DNA from: Candidatus Aenigmatarchaeota archaeon
Lineage (GTDB): Archaea; EX4484-52
Direction: 5' to 3'
Length of the DNA: 10,289 nt
NCBI GenBank assembly: GCA_023137195.1
Contig: JAGLPV010000049.1
Coordinates: 1-10,289, forward strand
Each line of letters starts with the position of its first letter. Position 1 is the stretch's first letter. This document shows positions 1,292 to 4,406 of the stretch, piece after piece. A model generated the notes under the pieces. It did not search any database. It was not told where the DNA came from and saw nothing but the letters and a program-made list of their open reading frames with translations. The position numbers and the translations under genes were made by a program.

Positions 1292-1945
1292 TTATTTCAA
1301 TGCCAATTCTATAGGAATTATGACCAAATCCCCTCCATAGACAGCATCTCCATCAACATAAGCCTCCTCGCTTCTTATCAACAAAGTAGATTTTCCTGAG
1401 GCAGCACCATTTCCTTTTATTACTAATTTCACTTTTTTCCCCCCGGTTGTCGTCAAATCATCCAATTCCCTATAGGCAAGCCGAAATGTAATAAAATACT
1501 CGTCTCCAGTAGGATGCGCCCGTGCAAGCAAAACCCCTGGGTCGTCAATCCCCATTCTACCTGCCCCTGTCTCTTCAGGCGTTCCATTAACCCCCCACAT
1601 GTTTGACCCGGACACAGGAATCCATTCCTCTGAAGTTATATGCGTAACCGGACTCTTGAAAGAATAATAAAAACTATTGGTTTTTTCATCTATCTTCAAT
1701 TCCCCGTCAATATTCAGTATAACATTAGTTTGCCCGCCATTCAGCAGAACATTTGATATTTCTTCATTTATATTAGTCAATTGAGATTGCGCCGCCTTTA
1801 TTTTAGAATTACTGGAACTCTTCTCTATTACAGGAACGCCCCACATATACGCAACTCCTGTAGAAAATATAATTATTGCCGCAACAAGCATATAAGCCAC
1901 AAGTTCAGTTTGTGCTTTCCTGTTTTTTTTTAACTCAAGAAACAT
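1292..1945 (-). CDS. Archaeal type IV pilin-like protein with class III signal peptide (217 aa)
   Basis: From ATG 1945: MFLELKKNRKA|QTELVAYMLVAAIIIFSTGVAYMWG, a basic leader, K-A|Q cleavage site of the PibD/FlaK type and an N-terminal hydrophobic helix, followed by an amphipathic helix and a beta-rich domain. Start supported by the BRE/TATA at 1966-1980. Confidence 0.8.
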   Translation of the reverse strand: MFLELKKNRKAQTELVAYMLVAAIIIFSTGVAYMWGVPVIEKSSSNSKIKAAQSQLTNINEEISNVLLNGGQTNVILNIDGELKIDEKTNSFYYSFKSPVTHITSEEWIPVSGSNMWGVNGTPEETGAGRMGIDDPGVLLARAHPTGDEYFITFRLAYRELDDLTTTGGKKVKLVIKGNGAASGKSTLLIRSEEAYVDGDAVYGGDLVIIPIELALK

Positions 1946-1980: not shown

Positions 1981-2037
1981 TTATAATCCACAAGAACAGA
2001 AGAAGATAATAAATAATTTCTTACCCGTTCCGTGGGT

Positions 2038-2129
2038 CATTCAACAAAGTTGAATGTGCAAAAAAGCCCTACTTCATCTGTCTTGGACAGATGTGCAGAA
2101 AATCATAGAGATTTTTCCGCATTTTCGCA
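2038..2129. mobile_element. Putative miniature double-hairpin element, outer copy (45 nt once the inner copy is removed)
   Basis: CATTCAAC-AAA-GTTGAATG (2038-2056, perfect 8-bp stem), then TGCAAAAAAG-CCCTA-CTT[inner copy]TTTTCGCA. The palindromes are seen directly; mobility is inferred. Confidence 0.55.
2075..2121. mobile_element. Putative miniature double-hairpin element, inner copy (47 nt)
   Basis: CATCTGTC-TTG-GACAGATG (2075-2093, perfect 8-bp stem) abutting TGCAGAAAATC-ATAGA-GATTTTTCCGCA (2094-2121, imperfect stem); same architecture as the outer copy. Confidence 0.55.
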
Positions 2130-2177
2130 TCCGTGCGTCCCGTGGATTAAAAGCAGTTTCTTACGCATCCCGTGGAT

Positions 2178-4406
2178 TTATTTGCGCTCCCATTCACAAA
2201 CTTCCTTTATTTTCTTCGCCCTCAGCGTACCAATCCCTTCCACATCCACAAGCTTATCCAAAGAAGCATTCACAATATTCTTTATGCTCTTGAATTTATC
2301 AAGTAGTTTCATACTAATATTCCTGTTAATCCGTGGAAAAGAAGAGATTATCCTCTCCTGTATATCATCACAGCCATCTGTTTTTCTATTAGCATACAAC
2401 TGCACAGACCTGCTTTTTTCCACCTGCTCTCTTTTAGCTAGGTTAATCAGCAATTCACAACTCTGGTCAATATTTTTCGTAAAATAAACAGGAATACGAA
2501 AATCAATCAAAACAGAATTTATCGCCCCCATGACTGCAGAAGGATGTATATTCCGGCTATATTTTAAATCAAGCATATCTCCTTCTCCTTCAATCATCAG
2601 CACAGGACGCAAAAAAGAAGAAGAAAGTGCACTCAACTGCTCAAACAATCTCTTGTCTATAATTGAGTCAACAAAATCATCCACTGTTTTTCTCTCCACC
2701 CCTAGTCGGTCCGACAAGATAAAATCTGCAACCTTAAGCTGGTGTACATCAAGAGAAATATTTTTTCTCGCACTTAATTGAGACAGTTTTTTATTGACCT
2801 GCGTTTCCCGGACATCTGCAACAATAGTTATTTTTTTCTCATCCGCATAATAGTCAAATACAGTCGGTTGCTTTTTAGCCTCCTTCATCACCCCATTTGC
2901 TTCAAATGCATTTTTCATATCTTTTAATGTCTTGTGCATTTTCTTTTCCTTCGCCTTGGACGACCAGAAATATGCCTCATCAATAGTATCTTTTGTTATC
3001 AAAATATACAGGCTGCCTTGTTTTTGCCGCCCGGTCCTTCCTCTCCGCTGTATTGTCCTTATTTCAGAGGGTATCGGCTCATGAAAAATAACAGTATCTA
3101 CCTTGGGAATATCCAGCCCTTCCTCGCCAACAGAAGTTGAGATAAGCACATTATATTCATCATTCCTGAATTTGTTCAATATCTCCATCTGTTGCTTTTG
3201 TGTATTTGAAGCGCGTTGTCCTATAAATTTCACCGCCCTGATTTCACCGCCCTTTTTCGAAGCCAGCCAATCATATATTTGCTCTACAGTATTGACATAC
3301 TGTGCAAAAACAATCGCTTTTTTGTTTTTCCCAATATGTTTCTCAAGAAGTTCCATTATGGTATCCATCTTCGGATGTTGTTCTCCTCGTTCAGAGAGCT
3401 TTTCTATATGAATCAATGCCTTTGCAAAATCTTTGCTGCCAAAAAGAGATTTTACTGCCTTTGTCTGCTCCAGTCTTAATTTATCTGCGTATTGTTTTGC
3501 CTGTACAGCACCCTGCGTTGTCAGGACTTCAGCAAGATAATTCAGTTTGATTAAAGAAGAGATGAGCGACACATAGTTGAAATAAAGAGGATTCTTGTCC
3601 TGCCTTATTTTTTCCATCATATCTCTTTGCAGCATCAACAACTGCTTTTTGGATATTTTTGAGCCAAACACCATCTTTGCATCTCGCAGGGATTTCATGT
3701 ATTTTTCTTTTGATTTTTCAAGCAGTCCAAATGCTGTCTTGTATTGCTCTGTCAGCTCCACAACAATCCATTTCTTGTCTATCGTCTGCACATACGGCTT
3801 TATATCCGGGTCATTTTCCTTCCTGATTTCAATATGCTCAATGAATAGGTTTGCGCACAACTCGTTAATCTTATCTTCATTTGAGCCCGGGGAAGCGGTA
3901 AGAGCAGTCAAAATTTTTCCTTCTCTTCCATCAGACAAATATTTTTTTGCAATAAATGTATAGGCGTAATTTCCTATTGCCCGGTGGGCTTCATCAAAAA
4001 CAATTATAGAATAATCATTCAGATTAATGACGCTTTTTATCAAATCATTTTCTATGACCTGGGGAGTTGCAATTACAATCTGGTGAGATTCATAATCTTC
4101 CTTTCTTTTTTGCGGGCTTATCGCCCCGGTCAAAAGGCATATTTTGGCGATGTCATATTCCAGAAAATCTTCAAGGCTTTTTTTATGCTGCTCTGCCAGG
4201 GGCTTGGTCGGAGCAAGAAGAAGAACCTTTTTTTCCGGGTAATTTTCAAGCCGTTGCGCAACCAACCCAATTGCAATAATTGTTTTTCCAATGCCCGTTG
4301 GAAGCACCACAAGAGAATTCTTGTCTTTGCATGAGCGTATAATAGATTCCTGATAATATCTTTTTTCTATTTTGTCTTTTTTTAAGAAGGGATGCTCTAA
4401 ATGCAT
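2178..4406 (-). CDS. hef: Hef: FANCM/Mph1-like SF2 helicase fused to an ERCC4/XPF nuclease
   Basis: Q-motif RYYQ, Walker A LPTGIGKT, APTKPLAEQH, DEAH box, TAS motif III, SVGEEGLDIP, motif VI QRRGRTGR; C-terminal ERCC4 domain (DVRE...ADF...VERKTVDDF) and HhH motif (VEGIG). Confidence 0.95.
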   Translation of the reverse strand: MHLEHPFLKKDKIEKRYYQESIIRSCKDKNSLVVLPTGIGKTIIAIGLVAQRLENYPEKKVLLLAPTKPLAEQHKKSLEDFLEYDIAKICLLTGAISPQKRKEDYESHQIVIATPQVIENDLIKSVINLNDYSIIVFDEAHRAIGNYAYTFIAKKYLSDGREGKILTALTASPGSNEDKINELCANLFIEHIEIRKENDPDIKPYVQTIDKKWIVVELTEQYKTAFGLLEKSKEKYMKSLRDAKMVFGSKISKKQLLMLQRDMMEKIRQDKNPLYFNYVSLISSLIKLNYLAEVLTTQGAVQAKQYADKLRLEQTKAVKSLFGSKDFAKALIHIEKLSERGEQHPKMDTIMELLEKHIGKNKKAIVFAQYVNTVEQIYDWLASKKGGEIRAVKFIGQRASNTQKQQMEILNKFRNDEYNVLISTSVGEEGLDIPKVDTVIFHEPIPSEIRTIQRRGRTGRQKQGSLYILITKDTIDEAYFWSSKAKEKKMHKTLKDMKNAFEANGVMKEAKKQPTVFDYYADEKKITIVADVRETQVNKKLSQLSARKNISLDVHQLKVADFILSDRLGVERKTVDDFVDSIIDKRLFEQLSALSSSFLRPVLMIEGEGDMLDLKYSRNIHPSAVMGAINSVLIDFRIPVYFTKNIDQSCELLINLAKREQVEKSRSVQLYANRKTDGCDDIQERIISSFPRINRNISMKLLDKFKSIKNIVNASLDKLVDVEGIGTLRAKKIKEVCEWERK

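Follow-up and report, generated by a model that had tools for sequence, protein, structure and literature searches.

A 92-nucleotide (nt) block at positions 2038-2129 of an archaeal contig consists of a 47-nt two-hairpin unit lying precisely inside a 45-nt relative, which itself lies inside a larger palindromic repeat. The window analysed here (10,289 nt) is this one whole contig (C44) of a Candidatus Aenigmatarchaeota assembly (G000; 1.42 Mb in 57 contigs, 35% GC, completeness 85%), and the block is enclosed by two minus-strand genes, one hef-type and one pilin-like. Units of this kind probably form a PATE/REP-like family of non-autonomous hairpin elements, 45-47 nt long, inserting at defined sites without target duplication. 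On the best reading, such a family is new for DPANN-type archaea and unusual in its geometry and targeting, and haloarchaeal PATEs and bacterial REPs already exemplify the general phenomenon. Little mobile DNA is expected in reduced archaeal genomes of the symbiont type; G000 has tiny repeats in several layers, one targeting another to the exact base. Loci are given below as contig and position, in G000 unless another genome is named.

The nested block and removal of its inner unit

All units shared one plan: the 5' hairpin (YAT-N5-loop-N5'-ATR) starts flush with the element end, and a bulged hairpin adjoins it on the 3' side, the whole non-coding unit being 44-48 nt long. The second stem occurred in two forms, TGCRGAAAATC-loop-GATTTTCYYGCA and an A-rich TGCAAAAAAG-loop-CTTTTTTCGCA. 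First hairpins were of two types, named here ATTCAAY and ATCNGTC, and the block held one unit of each:

2038..2056, plus strand: hairpin 1 of the outer unit (ATTCAAY type), CATTCAAC-AAA-GTTGAATG, 8 bp with a 3-nt loop
2057..2074, plus strand: 5' part of outer stem 2, with left arm TGCAAAAAAG (2057-2066), loop CCCTA (2067-2071) and the start of the right arm, CTT (2072-2074)
2075..2121, plus strand: complete 47-nt inner unit (ATCNGTC type), with hairpin 1 at 2075-2093 and bulged stem 2 at 2094-2121
2122..2129, plus strand: last 8 nt of the outer right arm, TTTTCGCA; joining 2074 to 2122 re-forms a 45-nt unit

A sequence-only reading had described the block as a candidate miniature mobile element inserted into a copy of itself. 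Its letters and coordinates were all correct when the sequence was re-read, and both the observation and its interpretation as nesting were confirmed. The two first hairpins, at 2038-2056 and 2075-2093 (the latter CATCTGTC-TTG-GACAGATG), each formed eight perfect pairs while differing at four of the five inner pairs, as that reading had stated. Each unit was flanked by T on both sides, and stem 2 of the outer unit was split into 2057-2074 and 2122-2129.

Removal of 2075-2121 restored a complete 45-nt outer unit scoring 32.7-32.8 bits against the family profile, and the excision was exact to within one nucleotide. Among 47-nt deletions shifted by -8 to +8, a full unit was left only at -1, 0 and +1, with 0 the best (32.8 bits); with the start fixed at 2075 and the length varied from 40 to 54 nt, the deletions that worked were those of 46 and 47 nt, 47 being the best. 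The inner unit matched the covariance model of the family with E = 2.8e-13 and scored 45.6 bits by hidden Markov model. The structure of the block also exceeded chance expectation, with a single-stranded DNA fold of 2020-2185 at -29.8 kcal/mol against -15.1 +/- 2.8 for shuffled sequences (z = -5.25; 0 of 200 shuffles as good). The RNA fold of the opposite strand of this region gave z = -3.69.

A dispersed unit family, its nests and its landing sites

Copies were found by a hairpin scan and then by a structure-aware scan (17 units). Twenty complete units, namely 14 of those 17 (three identical duplicates being omitted), the inner unit of the window and five others, aligned in 47 columns. Invariant columns included A2 and T3 (YAT), A17 and T18 (ATR), and T20, C22, G45 and C46 of stem 2, while G21 and A47 were near-invariant (at least 90% of the 20 units). 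In the named structure 94.5% of cells were paired, versus 33-47% with slid partners. Units started with YAT and ended with GCA, the two ends not being inverted copies of each other, and the hairpins extended to both unit ends, give or take 1 nt.

Six of the eight pairs of hairpin 1 changed on both sides across the alignment, with 98.8% of the helix paired. The covariation read earlier from the two first hairpins of the block separates two sub-types with different landing sites. Stem 2 was conserved in sequence, and its 3' arm was one base longer than the 5' arm in all 20 units, which extends to the family what had been noticed in the block.

The covariance model built from this alignment (R1) retrieved 28 complete units in G000 at E <= 1e-9 (its own 20 seeds, the three identical duplicates and five new ones). 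The expectation of a structure-defined, non-coding family dispersed across the genome was therefore borne out, the scan also finding it in a congener. R1 picked up truncated heads of interrupted units as well, such as 2038-2060. Uninterrupted units of the outer type (TGCAAAAAAG-loop-CTTTTTTCGCA) stood at C7:35280 and C55:10228. A dispersed repeat of about 200-250 nt (..ATATCGCGGCACAA..GGCGCGATATACTAGCAAAATACATAAAT..) lay upstream of the units at C7:35280, C43:7765 and C16:8570. No unit locus adjoined any of the 33 tRNA genes of G000.

Thirteen composites were peeled in silico, innermost unit first. A canonical 45-47-nt unit re-formed on removal of the innermost one in nine of the 13, and eight peeled fully to a seamless host repeat (C44, C3:646, C16:9098, C17, C21:18272, C33, C1 and C12), C17 doing so in three rounds for its three layers. 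The other five were degenerate or carried deletions (C3:5236, C14, C38:9371, C48 and C7:57653). Left halves equalled right-arm stubs in number in 10 of the 13 composites by a count made by eye (at C3:5236 the ratio was 4:4). Nesting predicts such mirror symmetry and the restored 12-nt right arm, and tandem duplication does not.

The 92-nt composite of outer plus inner unit occurred at three loci (C44, C3:646 and C16:9098), more than 95% identical from stem 2 onward and differing mainly in hairpin 1. The nesting event seen in the window therefore did not necessarily take place between the hef-type and pilin-like genes.

Insertion had one orientation and a defined site, ..GT^T.., 3' of ..(R/N)GT and 5' of T(T)C, with no target duplication. 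The flanks of a unit differed between its two sides, and peeled arrays and units were seamless. The T/T flanks without duplication reported for the block were thus confirmed, and duplication-free nesting recurred in other composites. Units of the ATTCAAY type lay between two 9-mer-like repeats of the host repeat, ..YYGTGNGT^TCYRTGG.., in a single orientation relative to these repeats. In all 12 listed array insertions the 5' flank was ..GT(G/A)NGT or closely similar and the 3' flank was TC(Y).., and unit-free arrays with an identical junction existed, for example ..GTGCGTTCTGTGGAT at C8:8687-8787.

The two hairpin types differed in where they landed. Complete ATTCAAY-type units stood directly in arrays in 16 of 18 cases, while ATCNGTC-type units lay inside another unit in 10 of 10 (about seven independent composites), type labels being corrected by eye in both counts. 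The target of the ATCNGTC type was the 3' arm of stem 2 of the other unit, mostly GAGT^TTCYCGCA and in the window type CTT^TTTTCGCA. Right arms interrupted in this way read GAGTTTCC, and GAGT stood at that place in none of the 20 aligned uninterrupted units. For most copies the 5' flank was GNGT in arrays and GAGT in units; it was CTT in the nest of the window and GGGG or GTAT in some others. The likeness of GAGT^TTCC to the array junction GNGT^TCC makes it likely that the target word ends in GT.

The host repeat, congeners and gene ends

The sequence-only reading had recognised the two-hairpin units, which are real, but had missed the larger repeat with terminal inverted repeats that hosts them (192 nt, 1986-2177). 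Its parts and the neighbouring genes were as follows:

1292..1945, minus strand: pilin-like gene, whose N-terminus MFLELKKNRKAQTELVAYMLVAAIIIF, on inspection of the translation, resembles an archaeal class III (pilin-type) signal peptide
1946-1985: 40-nt promoter spacer of the pilin-like gene, with a TATA-like run; of the same length in the congener G003
1986..2177, plus strand: whole composite repeat, 192 nt, ATCCACAAG to CCCGTGGAT, filling the space from the hef stop codon to the 40-nt pilin spacer; absent from the orthologous site of G003
1986..2037, plus strand: left part of the host repeat, an imperfect palindrome (ATCCACAAGAACAGAAGAAG arm, A/T loop, TTTCTTACCCGTTCCGTGGGT arm) ending in 9-mer-type ..CCGTGGGT
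2130..2147, plus strand: first terminal GTGGAT of the host repeat, preceded by two 9-mer-type repeats, TCCGTGCGT CCCGTGGAT
2148..2177, plus strand: second copy of the host repeat centre and right arm, ending in the outer terminal GTGGAT and abutting the hef stop codon (2178-2180)
2178..4406, minus strand: hef-type helicase-nuclease gene (Pfam matches DEAD, Helicase_C, ERCC4 and HHH), whose 3' end touches the composite

The product of 1292-1945 had no match in a Pfam search, and "pilin-like" describes what its N-terminal motif looks like.

Host repeats ended in inverted ATCCACRG...CYGTGGAT, and 9-10-nt repeats, of CACGGAAC / GTTCCGTG type, made up their arms. The octamer ATCCACRG occurred 158 times on both strands of G000, against about 46 expected from base composition. 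When both units were removed from the window, 2037 joined 2130 in a seamless ..CCGTGGGT followed by TCCGTGCGT.., like the unit-free arrays elsewhere, and unit-free relatives of the host repeat were found, for example at C8:8687-8787 and C21:2982-3081. A direct repeat, 2005-2035 versus 2145-2175 (31 nt, 74% identical, D9), gave the window copy two right ends, at 2147 and 2177, and suggests that the centre and right arm of the host repeat were partly duplicated. Despite its terminal inverted repeats (ATCCAC...GTGGAT), the host repeat left no duplication at the one orthologous empty site; TA, TAT or TTA were each possible as target duplications at single loci, none being consistent across loci. 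A second palindromic family of about 67-86 nt (ATCCACAAGATTCTTG...AATCTCGTGGAAATCTGTGTTAATCTGTGGAT) shared the same terminal octamer and often lay directly beside 9-mer arrays (C4:55234-55310, C8:18625-18710, C17:34909-34985, C26:9895-9979, C34:15010-15087, C37:11005-11080, C37:24994-25060, C38:2202-2273 and C42:2902-2976).

The orthologous hef-pilin site of G003 was empty. The two genes were adjacent there, separated by a 40-nt spacer that aligned without gaps to 1946-1985 of the window, and all 192 nt were missing with neither duplication nor loss at the site. An empty allele, which the sequence-only reading had suggested looking for, thus exists for the whole composite but not for the inner unit by itself, as no orthologous site with the outer unit only was found. 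G003 C6:21653, considered as such a site, was rejected as the orthologue of another G000 unit, C16:8570. In G001 and G002, hef was not beside a pilin-like gene; the flanks upstream of hef differed, and the pilin-like matches were on other contigs.

Both flanks of 38 G000 repeat loci were compared with 67 contigs of G003 and were found together at only five (C44, C57, C38:9371, C37:6117 and C3:5216). Among these, C44 was empty, C57 had an unrelated 114-nt insert and C38:9371 had a smaller related composite. Between the same two genes at C38:9371, G000 carried a solo unit plus a two-layer nest, and G003 (on its contig C8) one unit followed by two right-arm stubs, a form that may be read as a nest eroded by deletion between tandem left halves. 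Where a flank aligned up to 25 nt or less from the element, G003 had a related element at 5 of 19 loci, none at 13 and unrelated sequence at one. At the remaining 33 of the 38 loci the flanks were not syntenic on one G003 contig (they lay on different contigs with room left, or a flank had no match), so gene order between the congeners appears to be often broken at repeat loci. A different hairpin repeat (..GCAAAATTTCGCAAG.AGTTTAGTTTCGGCAAAAAGAA.TTTGC..) was seen at G003 C8:4402-4517 and at other gene ends, once where G000 has an ATCCAC-type composite.

Beyond these pairs, R1 at E <= 0.01 matched 11 of the 41 genomes searched, G000 included. Among congeners, G003 had eight matches (best 3.4e-13), G001 four weaker ones and G002 none. 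The more distant G010 and G022 carried units with a different first hairpin and a similar second one, GCGAAAAATC...GATTTTTCAGC. A pattern of head plus left arm matched nine stretches in 185,579 species genomes, three of them assigned to G003; the other six (bacterial records and one Nitrososphaera) were taken as chance matches by taxon, without reading their sequence. In metagenome contigs the same pattern matched seven stretches, of which three were G003-assigned contigs, one was a 2.7-kb contig and two were chance matches in a secY-like gene, and it had no match in viral contigs.

That the nested arrangement is an artefact of metagenome assembly, made of collapsed or chimeric repeat copies, is extremely improbable. 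The window is a whole 10.3-kb contig, one of 57, many of which end in these repeats, and two breaks of public contigs, at 2065 and 2109, fall within the block. Depth rises about tenfold at these points, because the sequence is repeated. Against an artefact, independent public contigs from four runs of one study (compared as contigs, not raw reads, with overlaps lying in repeated sequence) tiled the window form as 1400-2065, 2038-2115 and 2086-2292, the last two with 0 differences. Together these contigs covered 1400-2292 piecewise, and no listed contig spanned the whole stretch. The 92-nt composite also recurred in three different unique contexts, nests with other hairpins occurred at ten further loci, and the second genome, G003, held related elements, one of them with extra right-arm stubs after it.

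A contig of run X2 (1,222 nt) matched 1400-1997 and 2175-2292, but 1998-2174 (177 nt) was replaced by 68 other letters, and the hef 3' end showed nine differences in 118 nt. It represents a second, shorter allele of the site in a related, co-occurring strain. An exact pattern of its 30-nt flanks had no match in metagenome contigs.

Host repeats were often placed at gene ends. Their ends read TAATCCAC...GTGGATTA and often coincided with TAA stops of the genes on both sides, as seen in the window (1983-1991 and 2170-2180) and at C57:20868-21121, C3:526-760, C55:378-510 and C38:9371-9575. At 10 of 30 loci an opposite-strand open reading frame (ORF) of at least 134 amino acids had its stop codon within -1 to +4 nt of the right end GTGGAT, and the left end (TAATCCAC) overlapped a TAA stop or lay within 4 nt of one at 7 of 26. 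Possibly the host repeat lands on stop codons, or it is itself their source. By crude ORF calls, 19 of the 29 unit loci for which both neighbours could be called lay between convergent genes, eight between tandem genes and two between divergent genes. Such placement fits either selection against promoter hits, in a genome with a coding share of about 91%, or a function at 3' ends. As repeats lie on stop codons and gene order is broken at most composite loci, they may shape gene ends and rearrangements.

It is very unlikely that selection keeps the units primarily as a functional cis-element of gene 3' ends (structured 3' untranslated region, RNA-stability module or bidirectional terminator), their repeat nature being secondary. 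The convergent bias and the stop-codon coincidences given above would suit it, as would the T6 run present on both strands of the A-rich stem 2. A unit shared by C24 and G003 contig C12 was identical at 43 of 45 nt versus about 83% in the adjacent gene, which hints at constraint or homogenisation. The congener, however, does without the element at the hef-pilin site, which rules out that the block is a structured RNA conserved at that locus, and 13 of the 19 comparable G003 gene ends also lack it. Copy number, nest depth and content varied freely across loci and species, and a convergent-end placement would also be left by purifying selection on selfish insertions in so densely coding a genome. 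Rfam 15 gave no match to the block, its only hit in 1900-2300 being caiA, outside the block, at 15.4 bits against a gathering threshold of 55.5 (E = 6.6). A simple terminator and promoter scan of 1850-2300 was empty, its bacterial-type pattern saying little for an archaeon.

Possible mobilisation and known systems

Beside the identity of the C24 unit, several observations weigh against a mobile family. No orthologous site holds the outer unit minus the inner one, and unit-level movement rests on paralogues and differing nests. Counts of left halves and right stubs were unequal in 3 of the 13 composites (C14, C48 and C7:57653). Hairpin-1 variants (C..G or T..A closing pairs) and stem-2 variants occurred in all four combinations, and near-identical composites differed only in hairpin 1, which indicates that recombination or gene conversion was also at work. 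PF01797 (Y1), PF07282, PF13358 and PF01548 gave nothing above cut-off in the 85%-complete G000, and none of its four PF01609 matches lay near any element. Y1 genes were present in 8 of the 42 genomes of the order, as a fragment only in G003, and no unit-like hairpin stood beside any of 10 Y1 loci taken from the order (best match E = 0.3). The unit hairpins are flush with both element ends, unlike those at IS200/IS605 ends; in IS608-type ends the hairpins are set 10-19 nt inside. The link that the sequence-only reading had drawn to a Y1/HUH system (IS200/IS605, RAYT) consequently finds no support in G000 or at the Y1 genes of its relatives. A hairpin near the Y1 gene of G010 (L042:1407-1433) was discarded, since it lay inside an ORF 3' end and was unlike the units of G010 itself. 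Solitary second hairpins, which might betray a split autonomous element, were also sought, but this search was dropped because its regular expression was too permissive (442 matches).

Some of the same evidence would follow if the repeats were modular, of the BOX/BIME kind, with a head, variable middle modules and a tail changing by slippage, unequal recombination and gene conversion and no 46-nt unit transposing. This is distinctly unlikely. It would account for the four variant combinations, for left halves (hairpin, left arm and loop; about 37 nt) standing head to tail in C14, C17 and C3:5236, and for one left half followed by two or three right stubs at C7:57653, C43:7765 and on G003 contigs C8 and C1; the ATCNGTC type, moreover, was never solo. 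Slippage does not predict, however, one 8-nt right stub for each extra left half in mirror order (10 of 13), nor the full-length units with a canonical 12-nt right arm that peeling restores. Junctions were base-identical in independent composites with different hairpins, and units broke continuous 9-mer arrays at one fixed phase and orientation.

Under the preferred reading of a mobile hairpin family, the units would move as folded single strands through a hairpin-recognising enzyme supplied in trans, by analogy with the "peel and paste" movement of IS200/IS605-derived PATEs or of REP/RAYT systems. In this scheme the target word would be the largely conserved 5' flank, and 3' cleavage would take place at ...GCA. 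This proposal builds on precise, oriented, duplication-free insertion next to a 5' word conserved in most copies, on the compensatory changes of the first hairpin and on the conserved bulged second one. In the window, the host repeat would have come first, then the outer unit and then the inner one; alternatively, the 92-nt composite could have arrived in one piece, because the same composite lies at three loci. Insertion of ATCNGTC-type units into the stem 2 of other units builds nests of two to four layers, which deletions between tandem left halves would then erode to one left half with several right-arm stubs.

A bolder version, unlikely as a whole, would make the units a new, ultra-small (45-47 nt) class of hairpin-ended transposons of DPANN-type archaea, moved by an enzyme of neither IS200/IS605 nor RAYT kind. 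The 5' hairpin would set the landing site (9-mer junctions versus the family's own stem), and the host repeat would bring TAA stops (TAATCCAC...GTGGATTA) to convergent genes, making a three-tier repeat ecosystem in a reduced genome. The defined hairpins, target and orientation offer a practical start for finding an enzyme that moves hairpin DNA in DPANN archaea.

The closest known likeness is to haloarchaeal PATEs. In the account of Dyall-Smith et al. (2011, PMC3119063), the 52-bp terminal-only PATEs of Haloquadratum have neither terminal inverted repeats nor target duplications and appear mobile; six PATE-into-PATE insertions are tabulated (Table 5) and repeat-mediated erosion is described. 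The units share with them a non-coding length, the lack of terminal inverted repeats and target duplication, a palindrome at each end, a short word conserved in the 5' flank of most copies, element-into-element insertions and erosion by repeat-mediated deletion. PATE palindromes, as described there, are near-terminal, with a longer 5' distance, whereas the unit hairpins are flush with both ends. The units differ further in that neither G000 nor the surroundings of the Y1 genes of relatives yielded an IS200/IS605-type gene or a matching IS end, and in landing in the repeat junctions of another family and in their own stem.

The host repeat recalls SMR-A of Haloquadratum as presented in the same paper (PMC3119063). 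Both are about 110 bp long, with inverted terminal repeats unrelated to known transposons and no target duplication, and their mode of movement is not known; SMR-A also targets palindromes of mobile elements. The two have no sequence relation, and here the large repeat is the target and the tiny unit the invader, the reverse of SMR-A inserting into a PATE.

Another comparison is with REP, BIME and REPIN sequences and their RAYT enzymes (Nunvar 2010, PMC2817692; Bertels & Rainey 2011, PMC3116915; Di Nocera 2013, PMC3733652). These are likewise short, bulged extragenic palindromes at gene 3' ends that form mosaics, and movement as single-stranded hairpins through a Y1 enzyme in trans is proposed for both. 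The aligned units, in contrast, had no GTAG or CGTC tag, and each combines two unlike hairpins in direct order rather than an inverted pair. They number 28 and not hundreds, one archaeal genus alone has the family in the set of genomes searched, and no RAYT gene was found in G000 (PF01797; assembly 85% complete). From miniature inverted-repeat transposable elements the unit differs in having neither terminal inverted repeats nor target duplication.

BOX elements of Streptococcus pneumoniae have the order boxA-boxB(n)-boxC and resemble the composites in their head module, variable number of middle modules and tail. Here, however, each extra middle module is matched by a mirror-order right-arm stub and peeling restores complete units, so the arrangement is one of nesting and not of tandem repetition. 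A likeness of hairpin 1 (ATTCAAC...GTTGAAT) to the integron attC core (RYYYAAC, GTTRRRY) was set aside, as the second hairpin type lacks it. Full-text literature searches, at the level of listings and abstracts, returned no description of such elements in DPANN archaea.

Two loci combined repeats with small genes. At C21:2390-3081, two repeat copies enclosed a small cargo gene, the only GxxExxY (PDDEXK_3, PF13366) gene of G000. On the 2.7-kb metagenome contig (L156:780-2465), two units flanked HicA/HicB-like and MazF-like ORFs, identified by eye.

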